A stretch of 64,000 bases of DNA from an uncultured Acetobacteraceae bacterium (GTDB lineage: Bacteria > Pseudomonadota > Alphaproteobacteria > Acetobacterales > Acetobacteraceae), in contig CAYNYQ010000001.1 in assembly GCA_964401305.1 (NCBI GenBank), positions 98-64,097 on the forward strand, written 5' to 3'. How positions within the stretch are numbered: the stretch's first letter is position 1; the number at the start of each line of letters is the position of its first letter. The position numbers and the translations under genes were made by a program. Below are positions 1-64,000 of this stretch, in pieces. The notes under the pieces were generated by a model, which saw only the letters and a program-made list of their open reading frames with translations, was not told the DNA's origin and ran no database searches.

Positions 1-411
1 CGGGACGCCATCCTGCCCTTGGACTCTTCTCACGGGCAGCTCCCCCTCTGGCAGGAGAAGGTCAGGCTCGACGAGGGGTTCTACCAGTCCCTGATTGAGC
101 ATCCCCTGCCGCTGCTCGAGACGGCAGTGCGGCAGATTTCCAGCCGCTCCATGGCCATCGACCTCTATGTCTGGCTGGCTTACCGCCTCCATGCCCTGTC
201 CGCGCCGGTGCCGGTGTCGTGGCAGGCCCTCCGCCGCCAGTTTGGGGAAGGCTATCGCGAGCTGCGGTTCTTCCGTCGCGACGTGCTGCCGAACCTGAAG
301 CTGGCGCTGGCGGTCTACCCGGAGGCTAGGGTGAGCATCGACGAAAAGGACGGGCTCATCCTCTACCCCTCGTCGCCGCCGGTCGCGGAGAAGAAGATGC
401 TCCGGGCTTGA
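1..411 (+). CDS. repA: plasmid replication initiator RepA, C-terminal part (5' end outside window)
   Basis: The frame of ORF 19..411 is open to the window edge. The block SMAIDLYVWLAYRL..PVSWQALRRQFGEGY..FRRDVL..LKLALAVYPEA matches the RepA_C-type initiator C-terminus as I recall it. Confidence 0.75.
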   Translation, partial: RDAILPLDSSHGQLPLWQEKVRLDEGFYQSLIEHPLPLLETAVRQISSRSMAIDLYVWLAYRLHALSAPVPVSWQALRRQFGEGYRELRFFRRDVLPNLKLALAVYPEARVSIDEKDGLILYPSSPPVAEKKMLRA

Positions 412-427
412 CGGGGATTGGACTCTA

Positions 428-1444
428 CTACCGGTCCTGCCCCGGCCCCTCGATCTCTCGCGGCATCTCCCGCGCCACCCTGAACCGCTCGGCCAGCGCC
501 CCCGGCGCCAGCCCTTCCATGGCACGCAGCACGTCCTTGGCCCCCCGGACGATCTCATGCGGGATGACCGGGCGCGGCATCCATCCCAGCTGCGTTGCCT
601 CGCGCCTCCATGCCGCCGGGTCAGGCCTGCCATCCTTGGCCAGCTCCGCGTCCCGCTTCAGGTCGCCGGTGAGTCGCCGCCCCGGCCCGTCCTGCCGCAC
701 CTCCCGGCCCCGGCGGGAGAAGTGCTCGCGAACCCGGTCGGGGATGTCCTGCAACACTGCCGCGCCGGTGATGGCGTGGGCGGTCACATCGGCTCCAAGC
801 TGACGCAGCCGGTCGGCGAGGGCGGCCTGATAGCAGGCCCCAATGCGTTTCACCTGCCCGGACAGCGCCATGGTGTGCAGCGCCCGCACCTTGCCGTCTT
901 GCGTCATGGTGACGTTCGGCACGCTGTAGTGGGTGTGCAGGTCGGGGTCGCCGTGGGTGATGCGCCCATCCTCGAGCATGGGCTTGCTGGTGCCGTGCAC
1001 GGTGGCGGCCCATGTGATGTGGCCGGGCAGCGTGCCGTCCCTCCCGCCAAAGCCCAGCCGCGCCTGCCCGATGACCTTTTCCACCTCGGCCATGGCCTCC
1101 TCGCCGGCGGCACTGTGAGCGTCGGCAAGGGCGGCCTGCTCCTCGGGCGTGCCGAAGGCCCAAGCGACGCTGATGGACTTGTCCGGGGTCAGGATGAAGT
1201 CGTAGGCCGAGATGCCCTCGGCATGGTAGCGCCGCCCCTCGATGCGCTTGCCGTCCAACGTGCGGCCCGCGAGGAGGCAGGCGACCTGGCGCAGAGTGAG
1301 CGGCTGATGGGGGTCGGCCTTTAGCGCTTCGGCAAGGGCAGGGGCCATGTCGGGCCGAAGCGTCGCCGGTTCCGCCGCGAGGTGCCGGGCCAGCGGCATG
1401 GCGGCGGAGGGTGTGGCGGCGGTGACCTTGGCGAACAGGAGCAT
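428..1444 (-). CDS. TrwC/TraI-type relaxase-domain protein, no helicase domain
   Basis: ATG at 1444. DFILTPDKSISVAWAF and HGTSKP..GDPDLHTHYSVPNV align with the TrwC blocks LDLTFSAPKSVS and HETSRERDPQLHTHAVILN. Only 338 aa, and the first Tyr is residue 73. Confidence 0.75.
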   Translation of the reverse strand: MLLFAKVTAATPSAAMPLARHLAAEPATLRPDMAPALAEALKADPHQPLTLRQVACLLAGRTLDGKRIEGRRYHAEGISAYDFILTPDKSISVAWAFGTPEEQAALADAHSAAGEEAMAEVEKVIGQARLGFGGRDGTLPGHITWAATVHGTSKPMLEDGRITHGDPDLHTHYSVPNVTMTQDGKVRALHTMALSGQVKRIGACYQAALADRLRQLGADVTAHAITGAAVLQDIPDRVREHFSRRGREVRQDGPGRRLTGDLKRDAELAKDGRPDPAAWRREATQLGWMPRPVIPHEIVRGAKDVLRAMEGLAPGALAERFRVAREMPREIEGPGQDR

Positions 1445-1470
1445 GGGTTCGGGGCAGGTTCAGAACGGGT

Positions 1471-1701
1471 TCATGGCTGAACCTGTGGCGGCAGCCGCTT
1501 CTCGATGCGATCGAGCTGCTCCTGCATCTCGGCGATCCGCATCGCCAGCACCTTCAGGGCGTCGGAGAGTTCGGACGGCCCCTCCGCCGTGGCGGCCTCG
1601 ACGATCTTGCCGAGCATTTGGGTGTGGAGGTCGAGCGTCGCCGCGATGTCCTCCAGCGTGACCGGCTTGTGCAATGGTGCAGCTCCACTCTCCGCATCCA
1701 C
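1471..1701 (-). CDS. small hypothetical protein upstream of relaxase-domain gene
   Basis: 76-aa ORF with a GTG start, 26 nt upstream of the relaxase-domain gene on the same strand. Coiled-coil-like; no recognisable motif. Confidence 0.4.
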   Translation of the reverse strand: MDAESGAAPLHKPVTLEDIAATLDLHTQMLGKIVEAATAEGPSELSDALKVLAMRIAEMQEQLDRIEKRLPPQVQP

Positions 1702-1763
1702 GGATCATGGACGGTTCTGAGCCGCCCTTGCAACGGGTCTGTCCTGCCGGATAGGCTCGGTGC

Positions 1764-2823: not shown

Positions 2824-3125
2824 CCAGCTTTCGCAAGCAGCTCGAACGCGCCGGAATCACGGAGGATAAACCACTTCACACGGTTCTCGTCACCGTCATG
2901 CAGGCCAGCGCGGCGGCGGAGAAGCACAGCGAGGCGATGGCGGGACGCGCGGCGGAACTGGCCGTGCGAGCGGTGGAACGCGAGCTGGACCGGATGCTGT
3001 GGCGGGCGCGGTTCGTGGTGTTCATCCGGGGCATGGTGGTTGGCGCGGCGCTGCTCGGTGCTGGTTACGGCGTCGCGAAGTGGGAGGCGGCGGGGTTCAG
3101 GATGCCCGCGTCAATCGTCCGCTAG
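2811..3125 (+). CDS. hypothetical membrane protein (start uncertain)
   Basis: In-frame GTG at 2811 just before the upstream stop (ORF track start is 2763). One hydrophobic helix, FVVFIRGMVVGAALLGAGYGVA. Confidence 0.4.
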   Translation: MDALTSFRKQLERAGITEDKPLHTVLVTVMQASAAAEKHSEAMAGRAAELAVRAVERELDRMLWRARFVVFIRGMVVGAALLGAGYGVAKWEAAGFRMPASIVR

Positions 3126-4240
3126 GCGGTATCGAACAGGCCGATCTGGTCATTTGCCGGAGGCGGAAGATCGGCCAGCGTCATGCCGCTGCGCACGTCC
3201 ACCAGCCCGTGCCCGATGCGCTCGACGGAAAGCGCCACATAATCCGGATTGAGTTCGCAGCCGATGTAACGGCGTCCGTGTTTCAGCGCGACATAGCCGG
3301 TAGTTCCGGAGCCATTGAAAGGGTCAAGCACCAGCCCGCCCTTCGGCGCTCCGGCGAGGATGCAGGGTTCAATGAGGTCAGTAGGAAAGGTGGCGAAGTG
3401 CGCGCCCTTGTAGGGCTTCGTGCTGACCGTCCAGACGGAGCGTCGGTTACGCCAGCCGTTCGGCGCGGCCTGTAAGGACTGGCCGCCCTCGATGCGACTG
3501 CGATGGCGCGAGTAGGTGTCGGAGGCAAGGTCTTTGCGGTCATCGGCGACCTGCGGCTTCCACTGTTCCGCGTTACCCCGTGCGGTGCCATCGGCGTTCA
3601 GATAGGAGAGGCGCGCATCGCGCACGAACCCGTTGCCGCTTGGATGGCTGCTGACAGCGGGCTCTCTGATGGCCTCGTGGTCGTAGTAGTAGCGCGCCGA
3701 CTTGGTCAGCATGAAGATGTACTCGTGCGAGCGCGTACATCGGTCAGTGGTGGAATCCGGCATGGGGTTGGGCTTCGACCAGATGATGTCCTGACGCAGC
3801 CACCAGCCATCGGCCTGCAACGCAAGCGCTACGCGCCATGGGATGCCGATTAGGTCTTTCTGTTTGAGGCCGTCCTGTTTGATGCTACCCGTGCGCGTCT
3901 TCTTATGGGGGTGCGCCGCGATCTGACGTGCGGAGATAACAGAGCGGTCGGCCATCTGGCCAGTACGGCCTTGTGCGCCCCATGATCCAGCGTAGCTGTC
4001 CCCAAGGTTCAGCCATACTGTGCCATCGTCGGCCAACACGTCGCGCACGCAGCGAAACACCTCGACCATCTTGGCCACATAGGCATCGGGCGTTTCTTCC
4101 AAGCCGATCTGGCCGTCGCATCCGTAGTCGCGCAGACCGAAGTATGGGGGCGACGTGACGCAGGTGTTTACCCGCGCACCTTCGGCGGCGAGGCGCTTCA
4201 GCGTGTCACGGCAGTCGCCTTGATAGATTTTGGCATCCAT
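3122..4240 (-). CDS. beta-class DNA methyltransferase, SPPY motif (N4-cytosine or N6-adenine)
   Basis: Internal ATG at 4240 (MDAKIYQGDC). Motif IV TSPPY is N-terminal and motif I VLDPFNGSGTTG is C-terminal, the PF01555-like circular order. The upstream in-frame extension has no support. Confidence 0.85.
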   Translation of the reverse strand: MDAKIYQGDCRDTLKRLAAEGARVNTCVTSPPYFGLRDYGCDGQIGLEETPDAYVAKMVEVFRCVRDVLADDGTVWLNLGDSYAGSWGAQGRTGQMADRSVISARQIAAHPHKKTRTGSIKQDGLKQKDLIGIPWRVALALQADGWWLRQDIIWSKPNPMPDSTTDRCTRSHEYIFMLTKSARYYYDHEAIREPAVSSHPSGNGFVRDARLSYLNADGTARGNAEQWKPQVADDRKDLASDTYSRHRSRIEGGQSLQAAPNGWRNRRSVWTVSTKPYKGAHFATFPTDLIEPCILAGAPKGGLVLDPFNGSGTTGYVALKHGRRYIGCELNPDYVALSVERIGHGLVDVRSGMTLADLPPPANDQIGLFDTA

Positions 4241-4253
4241 AAAAATCCATTGT

Positions 4254-4505
4254 TCAAGGTTTCTCTTGGGTCTCGGCAGCAAGCATGTCGGCCACGAACG
4301 CATCCCAATCGGCCTGCACCCGCTCAAACGGTATCCCGCCCCAGCCCGCGACGCCGGAGCCGCACTCGCAGCGAAACTCACCACTCATGTGTCCCGTCTG
4401 GTAAAGGCCGACGCTGTATTCCGTGTCTCCGCAGCCGGGGCATTGATCGGGGAGTTCGGCGGGAAATCCGGCCATGAACGCTGCAAAATAATCGACGTCG
4501 TTCAT
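4254..4505 (-). CDS. small Cys-rich hypothetical protein
   Basis: 83 aa. CPGCG...CECG suggests a zinc ribbon. ATGA start/stop overlap with the upstream gene. Confidence 0.5.
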   Translation of the reverse strand: MNDVDYFAAFMAGFPAELPDQCPGCGDTEYSVGLYQTGHMSGEFRCECGSGVAGWGGIPFERVQADWDAFVADMLAAETQEKP

Positions 4506-5155
4506 GCCGCCTCCCGCTGCCTGAGCAACTCATCGACGTTGCAGCGGTGCACACGGAAAGAGATGCACCAGACCCACGGGTTAGCGTGCCATGATTCTTC
4601 GCCGTGGATGGAATGCCATAGCCAAGCAAATGCGTCTCTCGCGTCCGGGCGCGGGTCAGAGCAGCCGCACGGCTCCGAGACACCACAGTTCAGGCAGCCG
4701 CCATCCGTGATACCTTCGGCCCTCGCATCCTCCTCGCTGATGTCCTGCAGCCGCTGCACGCGCACGTCGGTGATCTCGAGCGTCAGGCGCGAAGCCCATC
4801 GGGGCATGTGGATGGATGGAATCGCCTTCAGCGGCAGCTTGTAGTCAGCGCCGATCCAGCGATCCCATCCCATGGCGTCACCAACGCGGGTCCCGTCGGC
4901 CGCATACTCGGCGTCGCACCCTGTGATCGCGTCGAGGGATTCTCGCACCCATAACAGGTCGCCGGGAATTCCGTAGGGGCACTTGACCTCACCGCCATCA
5001 AAAACGGCGTATCCGTCCAACATGTGCACGGCCGAGAACGGCCGAGAATCATCGTGGGTGAGCTGAGGCTTCACGATCCTCCGCGTCTGCGTCTTCCTGC
5101 CTTCCAGCAGGGCGCGGATCATCGGGCCGGAGAAGAGGATGGGGCGCGCTTTCAT
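4502..5155 (-). CDS. ASCH-like phage protein
   Basis: N-terminus MKARPILFSGPMIRALLEGRKTQTRR is the hallmark start of a widespread phage ASCH-like family. Translationally coupled on both sides. Confidence 0.6.
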   Translation of the reverse strand: MKARPILFSGPMIRALLEGRKTQTRRIVKPQLTHDDSRPFSAVHMLDGYAVFDGGEVKCPYGIPGDLLWVRESLDAITGCDAEYAADGTRVGDAMGWDRWIGADYKLPLKAIPSIHMPRWASRLTLEITDVRVQRLQDISEEDARAEGITDGGCLNCGVSEPCGCSDPRPDARDAFAWLWHSIHGEESWHANPWVWCISFRVHRCNVDELLRQREAA

Positions 5156-7600: not shown

Positions 7601-7924
7601 CTACGACCAAAAGAAGCCATGCCGCGCCGGTCCTACCTCCACGCGGGAGGGCTGAGCGCCGCAGTCAGAGCAGCGCAGGCGGTCGATGAGCTGGTAGAGC
7701 CGGGCGGTGTCGGGCAGGCCGTGCTGACGTGCCGTGGCGCCGATCGGCAGGATAGCCGTGCGTCCGCAGCCGCAGGAGAGGCGAAGCCACCAGGTGCGGC
7801 GGTCAGTGTGTCGTCGTCGGGCTTGGTGCTCTGCGGTTTTGGGGATTAGGCGGGAGGGAGAGAATGTCGTCCACGCTCCACCCGGCGGCCCGCCGCCGAC
7901 CAATGGTGTTCTTCGAGAGACCAA
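7601..7924 (-). CDS. possible small zinc-ribbon protein (start unresolved)
   Basis: SCGCG....RCSDCG pattern in the 3' two thirds. The only in-frame starts are TTG codons that overlap the 7803..8465 gene. Confidence 0.25.
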   Translation of the reverse strand: MVSRRTPLVGGGPPGGAWTTFSPSRLIPKTAEHQARRRHTDRRTWWLRLSCGCGRTAILPIGATARQHGLPDTARLYQLIDRLRCSDCGAQPSRVEVGPARHGFFWS

Positions 7925-8465
7925 CTCTCTTCGACCATTCCGTGTGCGTCAGGGTCTCGCCCTTGTAGGTAAGGAATTTCGTCGAACGACGATTGCGATT
8001 TTGCTCCGCGTGGGTGGCCCAAACACAGTTTTCTGGGGTGTAGTCACCATTGACGTCTTTGCGCTCGATGGTGTGCTTGGGAGATGGCTTTGGCCCCATG
8101 TCGCGAATGAAGTTACGATAGTCATTCCATCTCGGGCAGACCTTAATGCCTCGTGCGCCGTAATTCTTGAACGCGCGGTTGTTGGGATTATTGCAGCGGT
8201 CCCTCATGTGTATCCATGTTTTGTATTCGGAAGGTGTTTTGCGGCCCTTACGCTTCGCTCCGTGTATTCGGTTCAGACCAGCGCATCCGCAGCTACGAGA
8301 ATCGCCTTTGACGACCGAAAAAAGATACAGGATGCGCTCTTTCCCACAATCGCACCGGCACTTGTAAGTGAAGTGCTCATTCAGGTTAGGAGCACGCTCT
8401 ACTAGGGTCCAATACCCAAAGCGGTCCCCCGGTTTTACTGAATCGACTAAAGTCAACGAAGACAT
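7803..8465 (-). CDS. HNH-like (degenerate) homing-endonuclease-family protein with C-terminal HTH tail
   Basis: RCDCG..SRSCGCA, NYGARGIKVCPRW and NGDYTPENCVWATHAEQNRNRR blocks; a paralogue lies at 16662..17195. C-terminal TLTHTEWSKRVGLSKNTIGRR. AT-richer than its surroundings. Confidence 0.65.
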   Translation of the reverse strand: MSSLTLVDSVKPGDRFGYWTLVERAPNLNEHFTYKCRCDCGKERILYLFSVVKGDSRSCGCAGLNRIHGAKRKGRKTPSEYKTWIHMRDRCNNPNNRAFKNYGARGIKVCPRWNDYRNFIRDMGPKPSPKHTIERKDVNGDYTPENCVWATHAEQNRNRRSTKFLTYKGETLTHTEWSKRVGLSKNTIGRRRAAGWSVDDILSLPPNPQNRRAPSPTTTH

Positions 8466-19192: not shown

Positions 19193-19196
19193 AGGT

Positions 19197-52663: not shown

Positions 52664-52789
52664 TTGCCGGTGCGCGCCGATTAGCAGGGATATGTGCCAC
52701 CCTTGTCTCCCGCCCTGCCTGCTTTCGCATATCGGCACACGGACCCATCCGGCTGGTCCTATGGAGGTGCCCGGGAGGGGGTGTCTCGT

Positions 52790-53319: not shown

Positions 53320-53335
53320 ACGTTCTCCCTGTGGT

Positions 53336-54578: not shown

Positions 54579-54955
54579 GACAGCACTCCGAGGTCTTTGA
54601 CCCCGACCATGATCGATGGCGGGGTTGGTATCGGCACATCGTGGGGCCGCCAGAGGTGAAGGCAGAACGGATGATTGTTGACGTACTCGGACTGCGGAGG
54701 GTGCAGCTGCATCACGCACTCTTCCGGCTCGAAGAAGAGATCCTTCAATTGGCACATCTCCTCCCAACTCGGACACCGGGTGCTGAGCGATGCGCTCAGG
54801 TGATCCCATCCGTAGTCGGTGCTGATGATGACCTTGACTACGGGGCCTTTCGGCAGCCGCACTTTGAACATCCCAAAAGGGTCGCCATAGCATGTTGCGA
54901 AGGTGCCGATGGTGACGCGGTAAGGCTCGATGAGCGGGTTGGGAAATGGTCTCAT
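54569..54955 (-). CDS. conserved phage protein
   Basis: WDHLSASLSTRCPSWEEMCQLKDLFFEPEECVMQLHPPQSEYVNNHPFCLHLW is a recurrent phage family (W.HvSvS...R.PtWeEM..vK..F) as I recall it. Confidence 0.6.
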   Translation of the reverse strand: MRPFPNPLIEPYRVTIGTFATCYGDPFGMFKVRLPKGPVVKVIISTDYGWDHLSASLSTRCPSWEEMCQLKDLFFEPEECVMQLHPPQSEYVNNHPFCLHLWRPHDVPIPTPPSIMVGVKDLGVLSWA

Positions 54956-55467
54956 CGCGGCCCCCGATCTGGGGCGAAGGCCTTATGGGAGACGCGCTCG
55001 CCTCTAGATTGCGCGTCCATACGCCGTGCGAATTCTCGGCATACGTCGTCGGGGTGAAGGTCCGCCATCCGGCAAAGGTCGTTAAGGTCAGCCTTTCGCT
55101 GAGGATTCTGGAAAAGGCTGCGGTCCCAGTCTTCGAGCGCCATCAGCACGACTGCCCTCCATAGGGCGACACGTCGCCGGTGGAATTCGGGATCCTCGGG
55201 GATAGGTCGGTAGAACCCGCCGCCGTCGCCGGGGTCTTCGTCGACGGAAGCGAGAAGCTGCCGACGCGGGCCATCATCTCGTCGCGGCTGGGCTTCGGTT
55301 GCGGGCTTCGCCGCGATCCTGTCGAGGATGTCGTTGCCGGGGATGGGCTTTCGCTCGGGCCGTGGTGTCCATGGCTGGGCGGTGACGGCAGGCTTTCGGA
55401 CGACGGTGGCGGAGCGCTCTTCACTGCATCGCGCAGCTCGGTCATCGCGTCGATCGCGGCGCTCCAC
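54952..55467 (-). CDS. protein with ADLHPD-box domain (5' limit unresolved)
   Basis: FHRRRVALWRAVVLMALEDW...ADLNDLCRMADLHPDDVCREF is paralogous to the N-domain of 56193..56618. GTG start at 55467. Overlaps 55143..56045 by 325 nt in the -1 frame. Confidence 0.45.
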   Translation of the reverse strand: MERRDRRDDRAARCSEERSATVVRKPAVTAQPWTPRPERKPIPGNDILDRIAAKPATEAQPRRDDGPRRQLLASVDEDPGDGGGFYRPIPEDPEFHRRRVALWRAVVLMALEDWDRSLFQNPQRKADLNDLCRMADLHPDDVCREFARRMDAQSRGERVSHKAFAPDRGPR

Positions 55468-56045
55468 CCCTCGCCACTCGCTGAGGGAGACGATGCGGGT
55501 GGCAGAGGCGGCGGCGGGTCTTCGCTCTGCTGGGGCTGCTTTCCCAGCAAGGCGTCCGCCGGGGCCTCCTCCGTAGCTCTCGGCTCCTTCGCACTGCGCG
55601 GGATCAGCCCTTCAGCGCGAAGCTGGCCGAGATAGGTGTGCACCGAGGTACGCTTGCAGTCGGCGAACTCCATCAGCTCGTCGGCGGTGCGGAGGCCTTT
55701 GTTCCAGCCTTCGAGCACGAGCATCTTCTTGGTGGGTTGCAGCGCCGTGGGAGCGCTGGCCGTCTCGGCGGGCAGCTCGTTGCGCGGAAAGGCAACGGGC
55801 ACCCCCTGCGGTTCTGGCGTGGGCGTCGAGGCGGCGATCAACGTCGCTGGGTCGAGCAGCGCCCTCCGCTCCTCCTGCGTCACGGTGACCGTCACCGGGG
55901 CAGGGGCCATGGCCGCGCCATACTCGAGGCCCGCGATGAAGCCGTGGATGGCGCCGGGGCCGTGCTGATCGACGAGGGCCGCGCCGCGCTTCAATGCGTC
56001 GAGAACAAAGGAATGAAGATTAGGACCTGAAACGCCAGTCGCCAT
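55143..56045 (-). CDS. HTH protein (3' third doubtful)
   Basis: VLEGWNKGLRTADELMEFADCKRTSVHTYLGQLRAEGLIP is paralogous to the HTH of 56193..56618. After about residue 210 the frame becomes Ser/Pro-rich and overlaps a better-looking frame. Confidence 0.45.
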   Translation of the reverse strand: MATGVSGPNLHSFVLDALKRGAALVDQHGPGAIHGFIAGLEYGAAMAPAPVTVTVTQEERRALLDPATLIAASTPTPEPQGVPVAFPRNELPAETASAPTALQPTKKMLVLEGWNKGLRTADELMEFADCKRTSVHTYLGQLRAEGLIPRSAKEPRATEEAPADALLGKQPQQSEDPPPPLPPASSPSASGEGWSAAIDAMTELRDAVKSAPPPSSESLPSPPSHGHHGPSESPSPATTSSTGSRRSPQPKPSRDEMMARVGSFSLPSTKTPATAAGSTDLSPRIPNSTGDVSPYGGQSC

Positions 56046-56192
56046 AAATACCCCATCCCCATGCGAGTTATGGTGGGGGTGGCAGCATGGATGGGGTTAC
56101 ATGCGCTGAACTTTGGTAGCGAACCGAAGTCGCCACCCCGTTCGCTAGTTTATTGTTCCCTAATCATTCTGCAAGCGGTATTTACGCAACAC

Positions 56193-56618
56193 TTACACGC
56201 GACCCCGATAGAGTCGCGGTATTGGGTGCCCCTGCTTCCTGAGGGCGATCAGGTGGCGTTTCACCGTGACGGACTCCAGCCCGGTATGCCGCGCTATGTC
56301 GTCTCGCGTCCTGCACCCGGCGTTCCATGCGTCCAGCACGCGCTGCGGGGCGGTCTTCTCCGGCTTGAAGATTGGCAGCGCCTCGCCCCGGCGATAGCAG
56401 CGCAGCACGTAGTCGGGATGGAGGTCGGCCCAGTCGCAGACGCGCTCGAAGTCTGCCCGCTGGCTTCGCCGCTCGAACCAGGCACGGGCCTCCGCGACGT
56501 ACCGCTCGCGCAACCCGCTGCCGTTCCCGTCGATCACCACCACGCCGGACGCTTCCAGCAGCGCCTCCTGAATCACGCGCCGCCACAGGTAGACGCAGTC
56601 ACCAGCCGGATCCGCCAT
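56193..56618 (-). CDS. ADLHPD-box + HTH protein
   Basis: 141 aa. LWRRVIQEALLE...ADFERVCDWADLHPDYVLRCY, then VLDAWNAGCRTRDDIARHTGLESVTVKRHLIALRKQG. Confidence 0.6.
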   Translation of the reverse strand: MADPAGDCVYLWRRVIQEALLEASGVVVIDGNGSGLRERYVAEARAWFERRSQRADFERVCDWADLHPDYVLRCYRRGEALPIFKPEKTAPQRVLDAWNAGCRTRDDIARHTGLESVTVKRHLIALRKQGHPIPRLYRGRV

Positions 56619-56621
56619 ACC

Positions 56622-57206
56622 CTACCGGAACTTGCCCGCCGGCTCGCCGTAGGCCAGCTCGAAGAGGCGGGGCACGGTGACGATGACGCCGCCGACGCGG
56701 ATGATCTGGTGGCCTCCATGGCGCTCGAACGTCACCTCCTCGCCCTTCCCGGTCAGGATGCCAGCGGCATGGCCGACGCTGCGGGGCGGCGGGGCTGGCC
56801 GGGTGTCCGTCTCCGGCACCGTGATCTTCGGCCCGTCGTCCTTCCGTCGTCTGGTCAGTTTGCGCGGTACCTCGCCGTCCTGTCGGTAGAAGGTCAGCAC
56901 GGCCTTGACGCGGTGCCCCGGGATGCCGAGCCGCGCCGCGACCTGCTCGCGCTTCATGCCCTGCTCGGTGGTGAGCCGGATAATCTCCGCGCCCTGCTCG
57001 ACAGTGTAGGCGGGAACCCCCTGCTTCGGCTGACAACCCTTGCGCCGGTCGATCAGGTGCAGCCCCTTGGCGCGGTACACGCTGGCCCGCCAGCTCGCCG
57101 CCGCGTGCGTCGTCTCCAGCCTGGCCAACACCTCGTCCATGGAGAGGCTGGCGTCGTTCCAGAGGCGCTCGAACGTGCGGGCCGCGTCGTCGGGGAAGCC
57201 GGTCAT
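56622..57206 (-). CDS. HTH-containing early protein
   Basis: The ATG at 57206 overlaps the upstream stop (ATGA). GMKREQVAARLGIPGHRVKAVLTFYRQ is HTH-like. Confidence 0.55.
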   Translation of the reverse strand: MTGFPDDAARTFERLWNDASLSMDEVLARLETTHAAASWRASVYRAKGLHLIDRRKGCQPKQGVPAYTVEQGAEIIRLTTEQGMKREQVAARLGIPGHRVKAVLTFYRQDGEVPRKLTRRRKDDGPKITVPETDTRPAPPPRSVGHAAGILTGKGEEVTFERHGGHQIIRVGGVIVTVPRLFELAYGEPAGKFR

Positions 57207-57577
57207 GTCAGGCGCACCTCGATTCCGAGGCAGGCCTTCATGAGGCGCTTCTTCAGCTTGAACTCGGGGGTCTCGAAGCCCTTGGTGTCCTCGACGATCA
57301 CCTCGCCCGTGGTAAGGTCGCGATACCGGAAGTCTCCGACGTAGTCGGCGATGTGGTGGCCGTTGACCTCCAGCCGGAAGCGGGGCTGGCACTCGATGGG
57401 GCCGATCGTGCCGTCTCGCTGGAGGATGAGGAGCGCGCCGTACCGCTTCGCCTCCTTCTTTGAGTGGAAGGTGCGCCCGAACGCCGTGACCTTCCGGGCC
57501 TTGTATTTCGTCCCCCGGGCGGCGCGGTCAGCGGCAAGCTGCGCCTGGTACTCCGCTGCGCTGATGGTCTCTGTCAT
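57203..57577 (-). CDS. DUF1064 nuclease-like protein
   Basis: KYKARKVTAFGRTFHSKKEAKRYGALLILQRDGTIGPIECQPRF....IADYVGDFRYRD..GEVIVEDTKGFETPEFKLKKRL matches the DUF1064 pattern. Confidence 0.7.
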   Translation of the reverse strand: MTETISAAEYQAQLAADRAARGTKYKARKVTAFGRTFHSKKEAKRYGALLILQRDGTIGPIECQPRFRLEVNGHHIADYVGDFRYRDLTTGEVIVEDTKGFETPEFKLKKRLMKACLGIEVRLT

Positions 57578-57816
57578 ACACCTGCCGCGACAAGGTCATC
57601 CCCATAACCGCCGCTGAGGACGGTGCGCTGCACGACGGGCGGAGCGTTCAGCCGGTTCTGCAGGCTGTCGATCACCTGCTGTTGCCGGTGGAACTCCCCG
57701 GTGAGCTTGTCCAGACGAGCGGCGAGAGGCAGCAGAAACTCATCGACCAGAACGTCAGGGGAAACACGTGCATAGAGATCATCACGGCGGGAAAGAAGGG
57801 CATCGTACAGGCTCAT
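57574..57816 (-). CDS. hypothetical protein
   Basis: 80 aa with overlapping start and stop codons. Confidence 0.5.
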   Translation of the reverse strand: MSLYDALLSRRDDLYARVSPDVLVDEFLLPLAARLDKLTGEFHRQQQVIDSLQNRLNAPPVVQRTVLSGGYGDDLVAAGV

Positions 57817-58049
57817 ACGTTAGTCCTCCGCCCCTCGATGATCCAGCGATGCGCCTCGGTCATCGCGGCGTCGAGCGTGGGGAAGATGCCGTCCGTGCCG
57901 ATCTTCGCCTTCCCGCGCTGCTTGGGGGAGAGCTTCAGGCAGCGCACCACGGCGGTGCCGTCCTGCGCCTCGGTGATGCGGAACGCGCGACGCGTGATCT
58001 CGTCGGTGAACATGAAGTCGGACTTCGGCGCAGGCTTAGGCAGTGACAT
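57813..58049 (-). CDS. hypothetical protein
   Basis: ATG at 58049 with a GGAGGA RBS is preferred over the track start at 58088. Confidence 0.5.
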   Translation of the reverse strand: MSLPKPAPKSDFMFTDEITRRAFRITEAQDGTAVVRCLKLSPKQRGKAKIGTDGIFPTLDAAMTEAHRWIIEGRRTNV

Positions 58050-58491
58050 GGGCTTCCTCCGTGTCGGTTGGTGGCAGTAGGTGTTCATTGGGGAAGGGCA
58101 GCTCGAAGCCGAACTGGGCGTAATGCGCCCTGATCCGCGTCATGAAGTCCTCGCATTCGGTGGTGGTGTATTGGGCCGTCGATTTCAGGACGACGACATC
58201 GTTGCCGGAGATGCCCCGGCGAATGGTCTTCAGGCCGAATTCCTGTTTCAGCATGTCCTTCACCTCCTCAGGTGAGAGGAGCTGTCCTGCTTCGAGGTGG
58301 GCTTGCTGGACGGCAGCGAAGAAGGGGCCGTGCATGAAGCGGTTCTGCTGGCAGCTCCGACGCTTCCCAAGCAGCTCGATGGTGATGCGGACGCGCTTCC
58401 CGGCGAAGTGCGAGAGAAGGATGCGAACCTGATCCGCCTTGCTGAAGCGGCCCTGCTCGGTGATCCTTCCCTCGAACTCGCACTTGGTCAT
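58036..58491 (-). CDS. NinB/Orf-like recombination mediator
   Basis: GKRRSCQQNRFMHGPFF and LKSTAQYTTTECEDFMTRIRAHYAQFGFELPFP parallel lambda NinB RNRSLDQNRKLW and QSTSRMRVGEFAELLELIQAFG. Confidence 0.5.
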   Translation of the reverse strand: MTKCEFEGRITEQGRFSKADQVRILLSHFAGKRVRITIELLGKRRSCQQNRFMHGPFFAAVQQAHLEAGQLLSPEEVKDMLKQEFGLKTIRRGISGNDVVVLKSTAQYTTTECEDFMTRIRAHYAQFGFELPFPNEHLLPPTDTEEAHVTA

Positions 58492-58498
58492 AAACGGC

Positions 58499-58834
58499 TC
58501 AGGCGGCGTCCTTCATCATGTCGTCGAAGCGAGCCTGCGCGTTGCGCCACGTCGCCTCGTGCAGGTGGTCGCAGAAGCGCAGAAGCTGGGCGTCGTCGCT
58601 TTCTGTCATGCCGGTCTTGGCAAGGGCGAAGGCATGGTTGGCTACCTGCCGCGAGGTGACGATGGAGAGCACGGAAAACGTGATGCTCATGATCTCCGGG
58701 ACGTTCAGGGCGTCATTATGAAAGGCCCGCTTGTTGAACTTGTCGAACACCGCGTCGATCTCGGTGATGAGGCGCTTCGCTTCCGGCCCGATCTTGTCGA
58801 TGCTGGTACTCTGTAGGCTTGCGTTGATTTCCAT
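58499..58834 (-). CDS. hypothetical protein
   Basis: ATG at 58834 preceded by GAGGAGGA. Confidence 0.55.
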   Translation of the reverse strand: MEINASLQSTSIDKIGPEAKRLITEIDAVFDKFNKRAFHNDALNVPEIMSITFSVLSIVTSRQVANHAFALAKTGMTESDDAQLLRFCDHLHEATWRNAQARFDDMMKDAA

Positions 58835-58844
58835 AGGTTCCTCC

Positions 58845-59288
58845 TCAGAATGGAATTTCGTCATCTAATTCAGGCGCTTGGGATGGTGCGGCAGCGCGAC
58901 GGGCGGGGGGCGCTTCATCGTCGCCAGTCCCGCCGTCGCGCTTGCTGTCGAGAAGCAGCAGCTTCGCGTCGAAACCTTGCAGCACGATCTCGGTGCTGTA
59001 TCGCTCGGCTCCGTCGTTGTCCGTCCACTTCCTTGTCTGCAACTTGCCGGAGACATAGAGCTTGCTGCCCTTGTGGACGTAGTTCCGCACCACCTTCACC
59101 AGCCCTTCGCTGAAGATGGAGACGCGGTGCCATTCGGTGCGGCTCTGGCGTTCGCCGTCGGCGTCCTTCCAGCTTTCCTCCGTGGCGAGGGATAGGTTTG
59201 CGATTTCCCGGCCATCCCGCGTCGAGCGGATTTCGGGGTCACGTCCCACGTTGCCGATGAGAGTGACGCAGTTCAGAGAGCCAGCCAT
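58845..59288 (-). CDS. ssb: single-stranded DNA-binding protein
   Basis: LNCVTLIGNVGRDPEIR...TEWHRV.IF......V..Y..KGS.LYV.G.LQTRKW OB-fold pattern and an acidic tail ending DDEIPF. Confidence 0.9.
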   Translation of the reverse strand: MAGSLNCVTLIGNVGRDPEIRSTRDGREIANLSLATEESWKDADGERQSRTEWHRVSIFSEGLVKVVRNYVHKGSKLYVSGKLQTRKWTDNDGAERYSTEIVLQGFDAKLLLLDSKRDGGTGDDEAPPARRAAAPSQAPELDDEIPF

Positions 59289-59317
59289 TGTTTCCTCCTT
59301 GTCTGGTTGTCGTGTTA

Positions 59318-59980
59318 TCAGCGGATGGAGACGCCGGATTCCTGGAAGATGTCCAGCCCCGGTATCTCGCGCGCGCCGCTGGTGATCGCTTTGCGGACTG
59401 CCACGGCATCGACCTGCACAAGGTCTGGCCGTGCGGCGGCGAGGGCCTGAATGTCCGTGAGGCTGAAGGTCCAGCGTTTCTGGATGACGCTCGTGGCGTC
59501 GGTGGCCTTGCCTACGTTCACCTTCTCTGGCTCGGCGCGTACCTGCACCGCCTGGCGAAGCGCCACCTCGGCCTGCACAGCGTTTCCGGCCTCCTCCTCC
59601 GCTGCGGCCTTGGCAAGCAGAGCAGCGCGCTCTTCTTCCTGACGCTTCCTCGCCTCGGCCAATAGCTCGGCCTCACGCTTGCGCTGGTAGTCGAGGATGT
59701 TTCGCTTCACCATGTCCTGCGCGATGGCGAGCGGCTCGGTGATGCGCTTGAAGCGGTCGTTGATCGCCTTTACGCCGTCGTTGAATGGCTTCACCATCGC
59801 CTTCCGCTCTTTCTCGGCGAGGTCGGCGTGTCGCTTGATGCGACCAGCAAGGTCGATGCAGGCGGCAAGGGAGTTGTCGTCGAACGCCGTGCAGGTGTTG
59901 GCCTCGTCGATGAGAACTTGCACCGCGCCGCTCAGGCGCGCTTCGGGTTCGCTGGTCTGTGCGTGTGCAATCGCATTCAT
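59318..59980 (-). CDS. coiled-coil recombination-module accessory protein (Gp157/DUF1351-like position)
   Basis: ATG at 59980 with an AAGGAG RBS. Located between the SSAP and SSB genes. Long Ala/Glu/Lys/Arg helix. Confidence 0.45.
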   Translation of the reverse strand: MNAIAHAQTSEPEARLSGAVQVLIDEANTCTAFDDNSLAACIDLAGRIKRHADLAEKERKAMVKPFNDGVKAINDRFKRITEPLAIAQDMVKRNILDYQRKREAELLAEARKRQEEERAALLAKAAAEEEAGNAVQAEVALRQAVQVRAEPEKVNVGKATDATSVIQKRWTFSLTDIQALAAARPDLVQVDAVAVRKAITSGAREIPGLDIFQESGVSIR

Positions 59981-60018
59981 AGATTCTCCTTGTTGATTCG
60001 GTTGTTGTTCAAGGTACG

Positions 60019-60720
60019 TCATGGCGCAGCCGTCCCGACCGTCGCCACGATCTCCTTCTGCTTCTTTGCCTTGGCAGCGGCGGCACGCTTGGCGACAGCG
60101 GGATAGGTGGCGGCGTTCTCCGTTACCCATGAGCGCCAGCCGTCCGAAACGGTGGCCAAAGCCTCCGCGTCCTCGGCCTCCGCGATCTGTGCTTCCAACC
60201 GGACAAGCTCGGCCTCGATGTCATCGGGCAGCGGCTTCTCGGGCGCGGGAGTGGGCTTGGCGGCTGGCTTCGCCGCCTCCTGCTTTTCCTTCTTGAGCGC
60301 GGCGACATAGCGGTTGTCGTCGAACTTGCCCTCGAACACGTCGGCACTGAAGCCGATATAGGAGAGCGCCTTGGTGATCGCGTCCGTGGTCGCCTTCTTC
60401 GCGGCGTCCTCGTCGAGGTGCACCTTGCCGTGCTTGTCGGTGCTCGCCAGTGCGTTCGTCGCGCACACAGGGAACGCTTCGCTGCGCTTCCCATCGTGCA
60501 CGTACCAGAGCTTCACGATGGCAATGGCGAGGCCTTCCTGAAAGCGGAACTCCGCGTCATAGCCCCAGCCTGTTCCAATCGGGCCGAACACGTCGGTCGC
60601 CCGTTTGATCTGATAGTAGCTGTCGATGGCGGTGAAGCCGCCGCGCTGGTTGATGTGTCGGGTGCGGTCGGGGTCGGTCGTCTCTACCGACTGCCAGAGT
60701 GCGAGGTTTCCATTCAGCAC
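60019..60720 (-). CDS. Rad52/Sak-like single-strand annealing protein
   Basis: DEDAAKKATTDAITKALSYIGFSADVFEGKFDDNRY is the Rad52-family SSAP signature (K.A.TDA..K.L...G...D.). GTG start. Confidence 0.7.
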   Translation of the reverse strand: MLNGNLALWQSVETTDPDRTRHINQRGGFTAIDSYYQIKRATDVFGPIGTGWGYDAEFRFQEGLAIAIVKLWYVHDGKRSEAFPVCATNALASTDKHGKVHLDEDAAKKATTDAITKALSYIGFSADVFEGKFDDNRYVAALKKEKQEAAKPAAKPTPAPEKPLPDDIEAELVRLEAQIAEAEDAEALATVSDGWRSWVTENAATYPAVAKRAAAAKAKKQKEIVATVGTAAP

Positions 60721-61025
60721 ATAGCCTCACGATCTGCCAGCACGCTTTTGCTGGCGTCGAAGTTCGCGGCAGCGGTTTCAATCTCAGCCTTCTGACGCTG
60801 GCGTTGCTCCCAAATGACCTTGATGCATTCTGCCTGAGCGATCAGGCCACTCACTAGTGTGTCCAGCTGAGCCTGATCGACATGCTCCCCGAAGAAGGTC
60901 ATACGGCGCTGTATGGTGCCCATGGCGCGGGTCGCAACCATCTCCATCTCGGAAATGGCCATGGCCACGTGATGCTTCTCAACGGCGTCGCGCGCGGTGA
61001 AATACTCTGAAGCGGAGAATGTCAT
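60714..61025 (-). CDS. hypothetical protein
   Basis: 103 aa with an ATG start. Confidence 0.5.
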   Translation of the reverse strand: MTFSASEYFTARDAVEKHHVAMAISEMEMVATRAMGTIQRRMTFFGEHVDQAQLDTLVSGLIAQAECIKVIWEQRQRQKAEIETAAANFDASKSVLADREAMC

Positions 61026-61216
61026 TAGCGGCCTCTCTCGGTGACGAAGTGGCCGGTGCGCGGGTCATAGACGCGATGCGCCGCGCCCTTCTCCGCCTCG
61101 ATCTGCCGGTGCGTGTCAGCGACGATGGCGAGCGCCAGCGCGAGGCCGATCAGCAGCGCGAAAGCGGCAAGGGCAACTTCTTCGCGTCGCTTCCATGCCA
61201 TGTGTAAGAACTCCAT
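61025..61216 (-). CDS. small membrane protein, first gene of leftward early operon
   Basis: ATG preceded by AAGGAGGA. TM VALAAFALLIGLALALAIVA. Confidence 0.5.
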   Translation of the reverse strand: MEFLHMAWKRREEVALAAFALLIGLALALAIVADTHRQIEAEKGAAHRVYDPRTGHFVTERGR

Positions 61217-62073: not shown

Positions 62074-62112
62074 CGCGGCTCAAATTCAAGCCTTTCACAA
62101 CAGGGAGTTTTT

Positions 62113-63285
62113 ATGAATGAAGGTTCTATCATCAAAAAGGTAGCGGTCGGAGCGGTCGTCATCATCGCGGTCATCGTCGCCGCGCTGTCGTCCATGCTCT
62201 TCCAGACCAACGACGCCGGGTACGTGCAAGTGAAGCAGGCCGCCGGAACGGGCGAGATGACGGTGCGCACCACGCCGGGCGTCTATGCGCAGATGTTCGG
62301 TGACATCCACGAGTACAAGATTTCGGACGTCTACGATTTCAACACGGACGATGAGCAGATCATCGTTCGGTTCAACGATGCCGCCACGGCACGCATCTCC
62401 GGCCAGATCAAGTACCGGCTTCCCGTGACGGCGGCGGGCATCCTCAAGATTCACGAGGATTTCCGCAGCTTCGAGGCGGTGCAGTCCGATCTCGTGCGGC
62501 AGGTCGTCGCGGCGAGCCTGAAGCAATCTGCCACGCACTTCGGCGCGGAGGAGGTCTATTCGACCCGCCGCTCGGACTTCATCGACCTGGTCAACGCTCA
62601 GATCAAGAGCGGCATCTTCGCCACGTCCTATACCGAGCGGGTCCGCAAGGACGAGGACGGCAACAACTTCATCCAGCGCATCGTGGCGGTGCGCCTGAAC
62701 GAGGACGGCAAGCCGATCATCTCCGAGCCGTCGGCGTTCGACCGCTACGATGTGGACCTGATCCAGCTCGTCATCAACGACATCGATTTCGACGACAAGA
62801 CCGACGAGCTGATCGCGAAGCGCAAAGAGGCCGAGCAGGAGCAGGTCGTCGCCAAGGCGAAGGCCGAGCGTGCCAAGCAGGACGCCATCACCGCGCAGGA
62901 GCAGGGTAAGGCCAACGTCGCCATCGCCGAGGCCGAGGCGCTGGTGATCAAGAAGCGCGCCGTGATCGAGGCCGAGAAGGAACGCGAGGTCGCGGAGCAG
63001 CAGGCGCTGAAGGCCGAAGAGGAGAAGAAGGCCATCATCGCTCGCGGCGAGGCCGAGGCCCGCGCCAACGCGCTGAAGGTGACGGCTGGCCTGACCCCTC
63101 AGGAGAAGGCCCAGTTCGACAAGGAGACCGCGATCGGTGTCGCGGCCGAGCTGGCCAAGGTCCAGTTGCCGAAGCTCATGGTGATCGGCGGGAGCGGGTC
63201 CCAGTCCGGGCCGGTCAACCCGTTCGATGCGGTGGGGCTGGAGTCCTTCATCCGCATCAGCAAGGGGCTGAGCAAACATGAGTAG
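62113..63285 (+). CDS. SPFH/Band-7 (flotillin/prohibitin-like) membrane protein
   Basis: N-terminal TM VAVGAVVIIAVIVAALSSMLF and an SPFH-like core (GYVQVKQ....GVYAQMFGDI...). A long AEAEA/EAEKE flotillin-type coiled coil follows. Confidence 0.75.
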   Translation: MNEGSIIKKVAVGAVVIIAVIVAALSSMLFQTNDAGYVQVKQAAGTGEMTVRTTPGVYAQMFGDIHEYKISDVYDFNTDDEQIIVRFNDAATARISGQIKYRLPVTAAGILKIHEDFRSFEAVQSDLVRQVVAASLKQSATHFGAEEVYSTRRSDFIDLVNAQIKSGIFATSYTERVRKDEDGNNFIQRIVAVRLNEDGKPIISEPSAFDRYDVDLIQLVINDIDFDDKTDELIAKRKEAEQEQVVAKAKAERAKQDAITAQEQGKANVAIAEAEALVIKKRAVIEAEKEREVAEQQALKAEEEKKAIIARGEAEARANALKVTAGLTPQEKAQFDKETAIGVAAELAKVQLPKLMVIGGSGSQSGPVNPFDAVGLESFIRISKGLSKHE

Positions 63286-63445
63286 CCGGCTCGTCGTCTA
63301 TCTGGTCGAGGGGGTAATCGCCCTCTCGATCATCTGGCTCCTGTTCAAGCTGGTCTACTTCCGCGTCTTCCCGCGCGGCGTGGTGAACGCCGTGAAGCTC
63401 CGCAAGGCGGGCGAGAAGTACGAGCGTGACCTGAGGAAGCGGTGA
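63278..63445 (+). CDS. small membrane protein (not in ORF track)
   Basis: The ATG at 63278 overlaps the SPFH 3' end. MSSRLVVYLVEGVIALSIIWLLFKLVYFRVF... followed by a basic tail. Confidence 0.45.
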   Translation: MSSRLVVYLVEGVIALSIIWLLFKLVYFRVFPRGVVNAVKLRKAGEKYERDLRKR

Positions 63446-63681
63446 CCCCCGGCGTCGTCTGGCATCGCATCCCGCCTGAGTGGCAGGCGAAGATCCGCCA
63501 TGCGGTCATCGCTGCCGGTGTGGCGGGCCTGACGGTGCTGGTCGGCGACATCATCCGTGGCGTCGATCAGCCGCCGCCGCGCCACCGGGGGCCGGACGAT
63601 CCGCCGCCGGGAAGCCGCACCTACAGCCACCGGTACGACGGGCGGACGCAGGGGCAGAACCATTGGAAGCGGAGGGAGTGA
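63442..63681 (+). CDS. small membrane protein with Pro-rich tail
   Basis: The GTG overlaps the upstream stop (GTGA). TM IRHAVIAAGVAGLTVLVGDII. Confidence 0.4.
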   Translation: MTPGVVWHRIPPEWQAKIRHAVIAAGVAGLTVLVGDIIRGVDQPPPRHRGPDDPPPGSRTYSHRYDGRTQGQNHWKRRE

Positions 63682-63878
63682 TGGAATACCTACTCGGAAT
63701 CTACCTCCTCGCCATCGGCGCGCTGCTGGAGCGCACCTTCGACCACCTCAACGCAGCGGAGCTGGCGCAGGCAAGGAGCCAGCCCTTGTTGCTGGTCACG
63801 GCCTATGTCGCGCTGGCCGTCACCGTCCCCTTCGTCATCGCTGGCGAGCTGGTGCGCAGCATGACGGGGCGGCGCTAG
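63681..63878 (+). CDS. two-pass small membrane protein
   Basis: ATG at 63681 preceded by GGAGGGAG, overlapping the upstream stop by 1 nt. Two hydrophobic helices. Confidence 0.5.
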   Translation: MEYLLGIYLLAIGALLERTFDHLNAAELAQARSQPLLLVTAYVALAVTVPFVIAGELVRSMTGRR

Positions 63879-64000
63879 AACCGCTCCGCCGCAGGAAGGT
63901 CGGAATGTCGAGGCCAAGCTCCTCCACCTTCCGCAGCGCCTCCATCCTGCGCCGGTGCGGGCAATCCGGGCAGCTCCCCGGCCGCACCGACGGCGGGCAG
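63835..64000 (-). CDS. 3' end of a gene entering from the right window edge (tentative)
   Basis: The frame is open to the window edge and translates ...CPDCPHRRRMEALRKVEELGLDIPTFLRRSGSS.... A D-I-P-x-F-L-R-R box is a recurrent alphaproteobacterial peptide motif. Confidence 0.25.
   Translation of the reverse strand, partial: CPPSVRPGSCPDCPHRRRMEALRKVEELGLDIPTFLRRSGSSAAPSCCAPARQR

Follow-up and report, generated by a model that had tools for sequence, protein, structure and literature searches.

Phage-plasmids, i.e., temperate tailed phages that have no integrase and rely on the replication initiator and partition system of a plasmid for their maintenance (PMC7969092, PMC12282955), are an established kind of element. 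The current view treats them as an alternative to conjugation, with relaxases and origins of transfer (oriTs) nearly absent from them (PMC10123127, PMC10879196). The element described here was found in a 64,000-nucleotide stretch of DNA from an uncultured Acetobacteraceae bacterium (contig CAYNYQ010000001.1; hereafter the window), which a first-pass annotation had read in its entirety as a mobilisable phage-plasmid. The phage-plasmid part of that reading held, on the strength of a closed circle, of RepA and ParA, and of a full phage gene set: the window very probably represents nearly all of a 65,088-bp circular phage-plasmid, which would be maintained as a plasmid during lysogeny through RepA and ParA and would still be a working phage. 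The mobilisable part fared less well, as one of the two relaxase-type proteins, a TrwC-like one, appears to be dead and the oriT candidate is weak, leaving a MobQ-type relaxase and an ATPase related to type IV coupling proteins (T4CPs). The case for the combined reading, that of a phage-plasmid that also carries a mobilisation module, is in our judgement evenly balanced. The host is probably an alphaproteobacterium of the Rhodospirillales and likely one of the Acetobacteraceae.

Conjugation-related genes have been reported in six of 222 E. coli phage-plasmids, of ~175 kb, that are suspected to be cointegrates or artefacts (PMC10123127), and in two P1-like phage-plasmids (PMC10879196). P1-derived plasmids that gained mob genes or an oriT have lost phage genes (PMC10879196; tyPPing paper). 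With the cointegrates of phage-plasmids and conjugative plasmids, and with the P1-like plasmids that acquired mob or oriT, the present element shares a phage-plasmid backbone combined with conjugation-related genes. Those elements are either oversized block fusions or have lost virion genes; unlike them, it is phage-sized, has kept all of its virion genes, and has transfer genes that are interleaved with the phage genes and conserved across deep divergence. Its novelty lies in this combination, with a relaxase that is apparently intact and a coupling protein of its own.

As in the P1, N15, SSU5, pMT1 and pKpn groups, tailed phage genes are found without an integrase and together with a plasmid initiator and a partition system, a likeness that is here read from the genes. 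In contrast to the typed groups, megablast of both window halves against phage and plasmid collections returned no meaningful match; the large terminase subunit TerL is at best 57% identical to those of deposited phages; and the RepA type is essentially absent from phages. The best TerL matches among deposited phages are to Rhizobium phages, and a search against one genome per species gave nothing above 67% identity. The Rhizobium phages RHph_TM3_3_3 and N28_2 were considered as relatives and rejected, as they share TerL alone and RHph_TM3_3_3 has an integrase. By these comparisons, the element belongs to no typed phage-plasmid group and is a new lineage among phage-plasmids, one with a RepA_C initiator that is virtually unrecorded in phages, and it comes from a clade whose phage-plasmids are poorly catalogued.

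A circular replicon with plasmid functions

The window has a GC content of 65.3% and makes up 98.3% of the circle. On a Logan contig, 1,088 further bases link window position 64000 to window position 1, with 100% identity on either side, and the two fetched ends of one Logan contig overlap each other by 30 nt, as expected for a circular unitig (k-1 overlap). This makes the replicon a circle of 65,088 bp. The two flanks of the window, which the first-pass annotation had proposed to search for an integrase and direct repeats, turn out to be each other, joined by the 1,088 bp. Exact-protein look-ups retrieved Logan contigs of 65,118 bp (65,088 + 30) from at least four sequencing runs and in different rotations, and 13-14 contigs carrying the element's genes in the 50-200 kb class; an NCBI assembly holds a 65,143-bp copy. 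The 1,088 bp missing from the window contain a gene for an 85-aa SH3 protein, iterons, a DnaA box, an AT-rich stretch and the 5' part of repA.

Any phage with headful packaging, which the terminase type suggests here, would assemble as a circle, so that circularity by itself is no evidence for a plasmid; the argument is carried instead by RepA, ParA and the missing integrase. Genes were called from codon-position GC, and every coding-like open reading frame (ORF) of the window was scanned against Pfam. Independent gene calls with precomputed Pfam hits covered the circle in three parts (52.1 kb via the origin to 11.4 kb, 12.0-32.6 kb, and 31.8-52.2 kb). The plasmid maintenance features are as follows.

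1-411 (+): 3' part of repA (PF04796); the start of the gene lies 507 bp ahead of window position 1, and the full product has 305 aa
1764-2823 (+): two-gene cassette, with a small ORF (1764-2111) and a weakly ParA-like P-loop ATPase (2104-2823), noted for its conservation in relatives
11733-12185 (-): putative centromere-binding partner of ParA, directly downstream of parA, without a family hit
12185-12841 (-): ParA partition ATPase, 218 aa, with a deviant Walker A motif (KGGTAKST) and matches to CbiA, AAA_31, VirC1 and phrog_164
12842-13277 (no strand): centromere-like array of GTHNGAC heptamers in the 436-bp gap upstream of parA

RepA, whose C-terminus had been recognised at 1-411 from the letters alone and is borne out by PF04796, shares 63-69% full-length identity with annotated RepA proteins of Komagataeibacter, Kozakia, Acetobacter and Gluconobacter plasmids. 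Its homologues are found in 1,080 plasmid records, versus one dubious, unannotated 3.9-kb record among 50,697 phage records. Directly upstream of repA, outside the window, lie three direct copies and one inverted partial copy of an iteron (TTGGACYCYBCTCAC), a fourth copy of which is present at window positions 19-33. The sole perfect DnaA box of the circle (TTATCCACA) is also found upstream of repA, together with the AT-rich stretch. By its sequence features, the ensemble of RepA, iterons and DnaA box is a standard iteron-type plasmid origin.

The partition genes had been described as parA plus a partner with a flanking repeat array. ParA and the array stand: ParA has the family matches listed above and scores 99.9 bits against the NCBIfam ParA_partition model, under its cut-off of 180, and the array holds 29 GTHNGAC heptamers on both strands, versus 0.63 expected per 436 nt and six in the next-best window of the circle. 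The partner is less secure. Pfam did not confirm a ParB assignment for the ORF at 11733-12185, which has a proline-rich N-terminus, a C-terminus that looks ribbon-helix-helix-like by eye, and a weak codon-position GC bias (0.75/0.61/0.73); a role as centromere-binding partner of ParA is possible. Similarly, the second ParA-like ATPase proposed at 2104-2823 has a P-loop match, which is sub-threshold (CbiA, 19.4 bits for a cut-off of 25.4). The cassette to which it belongs is nonetheless conserved in the two relatives described below, at 81% in the sister contig and 59% in pSR-4.

The absence of any integrase, attachment (att) repeat or tRNA target, noted from the first, was upheld around the full circle. 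No integrase, recombinase or transposase was found in the Pfam scans of all coding-like ORFs of the window, nor among the precomputed Pfam hits of the independent gene calls around the whole circle. A six-frame tblastn search with two tyrosine recombinases, one serine recombinase, two transposases and five proteins of type IV secretion systems (T4SSs) gave only noise, and thus revealed no remnant of T4SS or mating-pore genes on the circle. No protelomerase was found on the circle and no tRNA in the window. An integrase with att sites at the flanks or near 21 kb, which would delimit a prophage in a larger replicon, was looked for and does not occur; such a structure was rejected both near 21 kb and beyond the window on the basis of the gene calls and the six-frame search. 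A recognisable toxin-antitoxin pair, expected on a low-copy 65-kb plasmid, was not found on the circle either.

During lysogeny, the element would thus not integrate; it would replicate as a low-copy plasmid through the action of RepA on the iteron/DnaA-box origin, and be segregated by ParA acting on the heptamer centromere array.

The phage gene set and its relatives

Two blocks of phage genes had been delimited on first reading, from terS to the lysis genes and, for the recombination and early genes, at about 52.8-61.2 kb. Both proved sound, the first running from the lysozyme gene to the gene for the small terminase subunit TerS and the second containing SSB, NinB, DUF1064 and exonuclease-like PHROGs. 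The phage features are given below.

24674-24961 (-): small HTH_31 regulator in the leftward operon
27421-27996 (+): divergent control region (27421-27543) and XRE-family repressor-like gene (27544-27996)
29107-51602 (-): virion, packaging and lysis block, from lysozyme (29107-29631) to TerS (51111-51602), assigned by Pfam and PHROG and in canonical order
29107-30775 (-): lysis cassette, with the lysozyme gene (29107-29631) and four small ORFs with hydrophobic segments
30772-42249 (-): tail module, with a GDSL-esterase fibre, a glycine-rich protein, distal tail and hub proteins, tape measure, ORFs in the chaperone position, and tail tube
42278-51602 (-): head, connector and packaging module, with tail completion, neck, head closure, connector, HK97 capsid, S78 protease and MuF-like proteins, followed by the packaging part (portal, TerL of the Terminase_6N/6C type, Sf6-like TerS)
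51728-61216 (-): early, replication and recombination region, with DUF4031/DUF6456, DUF7694, DUF1064, NinB, SSB and exonuclease-like proteins (PHROGs)

All of the ~45 genes of the virion, packaging and lysis block are open; they stand in canonical order and are 50-77% identical to their counterparts in pSR-4. The tape measure protein has 1,121 aa, and the early region includes a stretch similar to a YdaU-family protein of pSR-4. The XRE-family protein, overlooked in the earlier annotation, has 150 aa and many PHROG repressor matches, and its gene diverges from a long leftward operon, an arrangement that is also present in pSR-4; an immunity switch at 27421-27543 is thus plausible. The Sf6-like TerS and Terminase_6 TerL suggest headful packaging. 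By these assignments, the gene set is that of a complete HK97-type siphovirus: besides the headful-type terminase and the lysis cassette, it includes recombination genes and a repressor switch. As long as the XRE-type repressor at 27.5 kb is active, the two divergent operons would be shut off. Upon derepression, a siphovirus with an HK97 capsid and a 1,121-aa tape measure would be made with the help of the element's own recombination genes, DNA would be packaged in a headful manner by the Sf6-like TerS and the Terminase_6 TerL, and the lysozyme cassette would lyse the cell. All plasmid genes would be packaged as well, because there is a single replicon.

Two features of the tail region are worth recording in their own right. 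The tail fibre (entry 31299-34417, -) combines a collagen-like GxY stretch at its N-terminus with a GDSL esterase domain, and a glycine-rich protein of the ALK_LTK_GRD type is encoded next to it. A sialyltransferase-like ORF (phrog_4603; entry 42278-42844, -) lies between the genes for tail completion and tail tube.

Among annotated replicons, the closest relative is pSR-4 (NZ_CP086115.1; 100,864 bp, circular), from the complete genome of the isolate Skermanella rosea KEMB 2255-458. Almost half of the element's proteins (53 of 110) have homologues there, in the same order, including the portal (70% identity), capsid (52%), tail proteins (56-77%), lysozyme (66%), T4CP-like ATPase (50%), ArdC (65%), an SPFH protein (84%), GapR (74%) and SSB (73%). 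The two also have in common ArdC, a T4CP-like gene divergent from a helix-turn-helix (HTH) regulator gene, and a MobA/MobL relaxase gene with an ORF behind it. Beyond this shared set, pSR-4 encodes transposases, a serine recombinase and a ParB/RepB protein, as well as a complete VirB-type T4SS, a VirD4 and a 1,820-aa MobF relaxase with a YY motif; it has no homologue of the element's RepA or ParA, and its TerL differs. The position of its MobF gene is matched: the order is methylase, small ORF and MobF in pSR-4, while in the element the truncated TrwC-like gene, then repA, are found at this place. As in the element, transfer and phage genes are interleaved in pSR-4. With capsid identity between the two down to 52%, this shared interleaving speaks against a cointegrate of recent date.

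By its gene content, pSR-4 is a candidate self-conjugative phage-plasmid. No description of it as a phage-plasmid was found in the literature, the genome paper being silent on both phage and conjugation; it was not found in the tyPPing supplements, and PLSDB types it as 'non-mobilizable'.

A second relative, here called the sister contig, is an 83,408-bp metagenomic contig (JGI 3300043542, Ga0485819_000156; locus L058), of which 21 kb were read. It has the same gene order as the element, with 91% identity for RepA, 71% for the TrwC-like protein, 81% for the ParA-like ATPase, 80% for SSB and 86% for DUF1064, and its repA and TrwC-like genes are embedded among the same phage early genes. It differs in having a Rad52-type recombinase and an IstB-like loader, and the capsid search returned no protein from it. 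Together, the sister contig and the synteny with pSR-4 argue that the association of plasmid and phage genes is old rather than the product of a recent fusion.

Scans of IMG/VR with the TrwC-like, MobQ, T4CP-like and portal proteins found nothing, and a scan with the capsid only loci of 39% identity. Elsewhere, related capsids (47-53% identity) are found on contigs of ~62-66 kb and ~94-109 kb, sizes like those of the element and of pSR-4. One of these capsids is encoded on a 96-kb contig of an Acetobacteraceae metagenome-assembled genome, with the same order of head and tail genes.

The putative transfer genes and the readings they allow

The genes with a possible role in conjugation are the following.

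428-1444 (-): TrwC/MobF relaxase-domain protein, 338 aa (PF08751, 135 bits; NCBIfam MobF NF041492, 143 bits, cut-off 100)
13278-13691 (-): putative relaxosome accessory protein, 137 aa, with weak homologues that elsewhere lie between a relaxase gene and a T4CP-like gene
13803-13832 (+): oriT candidate, an inverted repeat AGGTTC-GCAA-GAACCT (6 bp) followed by GTAACTGCACC, 15 bp upstream of mobQ
13847-14932 (+): MobQ-type relaxase (MobA/MobL), 361 aa (Pfam MobA_MobL, 124.5 bits, cut-off 26.7)
14932-15447 (+): ORF directly downstream of mobQ, an arrangement also seen in pSR-4 and in plasmid pSM-4
15499-16521 (-): ArdC-type antirestriction protein, with ArdcN and zincin peptidase domains
25927-27420 (-): T4CP homologue, 497 aa, first gene of the leftward operon, with intact Walker A and B motifs

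The T4CP-like ATPase of the first-pass annotation is borne out at 25927-27420 by its fold and its Walker motifs. It scores 23.7 bits against TraG-D_C (cut-off 22) and 19.7 bits against TrwB_AAD_bind (cut-off 20.5), and has no match to T4SS-DNA_transf; among 39 sampled members of its family, which comprises 2,414 cluster representatives, these three domains are detected in 38, 31 and 12, respectively. The AlphaFold model has a pLDDT of 91.3, and its top 36 Foldseek matches are Cag-beta and TrwB, the best structural matches being Cag-beta, TrwB-deltaN70 and DotL (TM 0.5-0.66). K43 of Walker A and D318/E319 of Walker B are invariant. An assignment as a defence or phage gene was rejected, since there is no PADLOC or PHROG match, and the family was not found in the 50,697 phage records or in IMG/VR.

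Only seven PLSDB plasmids carry a member of this family, and the setting of these genes is informative. In pSM-4 of S. mucosa (22 kb), the T4CP-like gene is beside genes for a MobQ relaxase, a small ORF, RepA and ParA, and in Nitrosospira multiformis plasmid 1 (18.9 kb) it comes after the genes for MobC and a MOBP relaxase and after a small ORF. In a metagenome scan that used a single protein as query, ten loci were found with a MOBQ, MOBP or MOBF-like relaxase gene within a few kb of a T4CP-like gene, and none of them has the phage genes of the present element. A homologue weakly similar to the product of 13278-13691 is present at seven of these loci as well as on pSM-4 and the Nitrosospira plasmid, so that homologues of this protein sit on small plasmids and metagenome contigs. 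From this co-occurrence, the association of a relaxase, a small accessory protein and an anchor-less T4CP is a recurrent DNA-transfer module of small mobilisable plasmids. The presence of all three parts in the element is the main support for calling it mobilisable.

CloDF13 is the textbook case of a small mobilisable plasmid with its own coupling protein. Like pSM-4 and the Nitrosospira plasmid, the element has a relaxase, a small accessory protein and an anchor-less T4CP of ~500 aa, which is 42% identical to that of pSM-4 and 34% identical to that of the Nitrosospira plasmid; pSM-4 also shares RepA (32%) and ParA. Unlike these two plasmids, which have no phage genes and whose modules are contiguous, the element has its module split by 11 kb, with the T4CP-like gene placed by the phage-type repressor gene. 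That the T4CP-like gene heads an operon diverging from this repressor gene, and does so in pSR-4 as well, is an observation of its own; the arrangement hints that the transfer function may be under the control of the immunity switch.

Both relaxase-type genes that had been called initially do encode the expected domains, and the MobQ protein is the only one that is catalytically plausible. Its Tyr46, Glu100 and His148/His208/His210 are invariant in the alignment, and Tyr46 aligns with the catalytic Tyr25 of NES, mutated (Y25F) in structure 4HT4. Disruption by a 50-aa insertion between H148 and the PHAH motif was considered and rejected: the insertion and a duplicated Tyr motif are common to other family members and are hence subfamily traits. 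The protein has no close relative, its next-best match being 42% identical. In the TrwC-like protein, alignments show that the metal-binding His triad is kept, and that the catalytic YY-tyrosine loop is deleted, as it is in its four homologues. By contrast, MobF of pSR-4, the Roseomonas and Acetobacter MobF proteins, and R388 TrwC all have this loop. The C-terminal helicase domain is missing too, the annotated MobF proteins used for comparison having ~1,070-1,820 aa. The gene is not a pseudogene, since its product is 69-78% identical to three full-length homologues, and it adjoins repA both here and in the sister contig, the only homologue whose context was read. The TrwC-like protein is thus best read as a catalytically dead remnant, or a repurposed and possibly DNA-binding derivative, of a full MobF, and the idea that both relaxases are active was rejected for want of its Tyr loop. 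The ArdC call was confirmed by the ArdcN domain and a match to phrog_7245.

Mobilisation by the MobQ relaxase and the T4CP-like ATPase on a helper T4SS is, from these genes, a proposition that could fall either way. The element has no mating-pore genes of its own, and a co-resident conjugative element is the most likely agent of its mobilisation. Nicking by MobQ would take place at an oriT that may lie right in front of mobQ; the complex would then be passed by the coupling ATPase to the foreign T4SS, and ArdC would protect the entering DNA. The oriT candidate at 13803-13832, which resembles the RSF1010-type nick region, is a weak lead.

Several observations weigh against this reading. The T4CP-like protein has no N-terminal transmembrane anchor, with Walker A starting at residue 37; its maximal 19-residue hydropathy is 1.58, at residue 49, to be compared with 2.3 at residue 6 for the VirD4 of pSR-4. 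Its gene and mobQ are 11 kb apart. MobQ scores 146 bits against the NCBIfam MobQ model, under the cut-off of 200, and its identity to the protein in the corresponding position of pSR-4 is only 28%. The oriT motif is a unique exact match, and at up to one mismatch it has five matches for three expected; the hairpin is unremarkable (z-score -0.58), and there is no clear counterpart upstream of the MobA/MobL gene of pSR-4. The degenerate TrwC-like relaxase, with its YY loop deleted, demonstrates that genes for conjugation are liable to decay in elements of this lineage. Finally, and bearing on the phage-plasmid itself, no multimer-resolution recombinase was found on the circle, and at 65 kb the genome is larger than is usual for an HK97 capsid of T=7 geometry.

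Many of these points lend themselves to a different explanation, in which the phage-plasmid spreads only as a virion and the relaxase, coupling ATPase and ArdC are relics or have been repurposed, having come from a conjugative ancestor or an old pSR-4-like cointegrate. The loss of the Tyr loop and the helicase from the TrwC-like protein, the lack of any T4SS remnant, the separation of mobQ from the T4CP-like gene, the lack of a convincing oriT and the poor conservation of MobQ all fit with it, as does the literature, in which conjugation genes of phage-plasmids are rare and often derive from cointegration (PMC10123127, PMC10879196). However, the catalytic Tyr, Glu and His triad of MobQ is intact, and the T4CP-like protein is full-length, has invariant Walker motifs and is 50% identical to a pSR-4 orthologue in the same repressor-side position. 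Capsids at the same divergence are 52% identical and relics would decay over that distance, so that the conservation of the T4CP counts against relics; this explanation, the chief rival of the mobilisation reading, is a possible but doubtful one.

The preferred reading of a phage-plasmid with a mobilisation module can be taken further. The coupling protein is well conserved in pSR-4, a deeply diverged relative that has a whole T4SS, and it can tentatively be proposed that the two belong to a lineage of Rhodospirillales phage-plasmids with two built-in routes, virions and conjugation. Conjugation would be served by an ancestral module of relaxase, accessory and coupling proteins, with the coupling ATPase tied to the repressor switch of the phage; the 65-kb element would be mobilisable and pSR-4 self-transmissible. 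Should the module work, one replicon would move both by infection and by conjugation, and the way in which the host range, the cost and the gene flow of these elements are modelled would change; should the two-route proposal be true, transfer modes would not be mutually exclusive within one replicon. Since pSR-4 resides in a cultured S. rosea strain, the question is directly testable.

An improbable explanation is that of a plasmid with a defective or domesticated prophage that yields no infectious particles; the plasmid would derive from a phage-plasmid and would now depend on conjugative mobilisation alone for its spread. P1-like elements that acquired mob or oriT are recorded examples of such a conversion (PMC10879196), and the genome may be large for its capsid. 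However, the converted P1-like plasmids of the literature are without virion genes, whereas here the open, ordered and conserved state of the ~45 virion, packaging and lysis genes extends to terminase, portal, protease, capsid, tape measure and lysozyme, with the repressor present as well.

It is very unlikely that the element is an ordinary phage without a plasmid stage, whose circle would come from terminal redundancy and whose RepA and ParA would serve lytic replication. A headful-type terminase does predict circularly permuted genomes that assemble as circles, and the samples look metagenomic; against this stand the iteron/DnaA-box origin with a RepA close to bona fide plasmid initiators, the ParA with its centromere array, the repressor without an integrase, and the closed circular plasmid that pSR-4 forms in a complete isolate genome. 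An assembly chimera of plasmid and phage, for which nothing speaks except the general risk of short-read assembly, can be dismissed for practical purposes, given the identical circles in several independent runs and rotations, the 65,143-bp NCBI copy, and the interleaving of plasmid and phage genes in both the sister contig and the finished plasmid pSR-4.

Accessory genes

The remaining genes of note are listed here.

3122-4384 (-): N6/N4 DNA methyltransferase (PF01555; PADLOC MTase_II); the independent call starts at 4240
8701-9708 (+): DUF3644 protein, accessory cargo, a PADLOC candidate defence gene (PDC-S19, E 1e-110)
10695-10979 (-): GapR-like nucleoid-associated protein (PF10073)
17779-19877 (both strands): restriction-modification cargo, with a BglII-like endonuclease (+), an ORF without assignment (+) and an MT-A70 methyltransferase (-)
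62113-63285 (+): SPFH/Band_7 membrane protein

Among the phage-type genes that had been placed at 3-12 kb, GapR, HNH and methylases were recovered, while the ASCH-like assignment of 4502-5155 was dropped, there being no Pfam match at E<=0.1. Around the DUF3644 gene, GC falls to ~0.60 between about 7 and 11 kb of the window, versus 0.65 overall. Apart from the MT-A70 methyltransferase, whose gene is two genes away from that of the BglII-like endonuclease, two further ones (3122-4384 and 21209-21742) are apparently orphan. The ORFs at 7803-8465 (-) and 16662-17195 (+) both have low third-position GC and, by eye, a Cys-rich motif followed by NYGxRGIxVCxxW; neither has a Pfam match, and they may be homing-endonuclease-like insertions. 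The SPFH/Band_7 protein is more conserved than any virion protein that the element and pSR-4 have in common.

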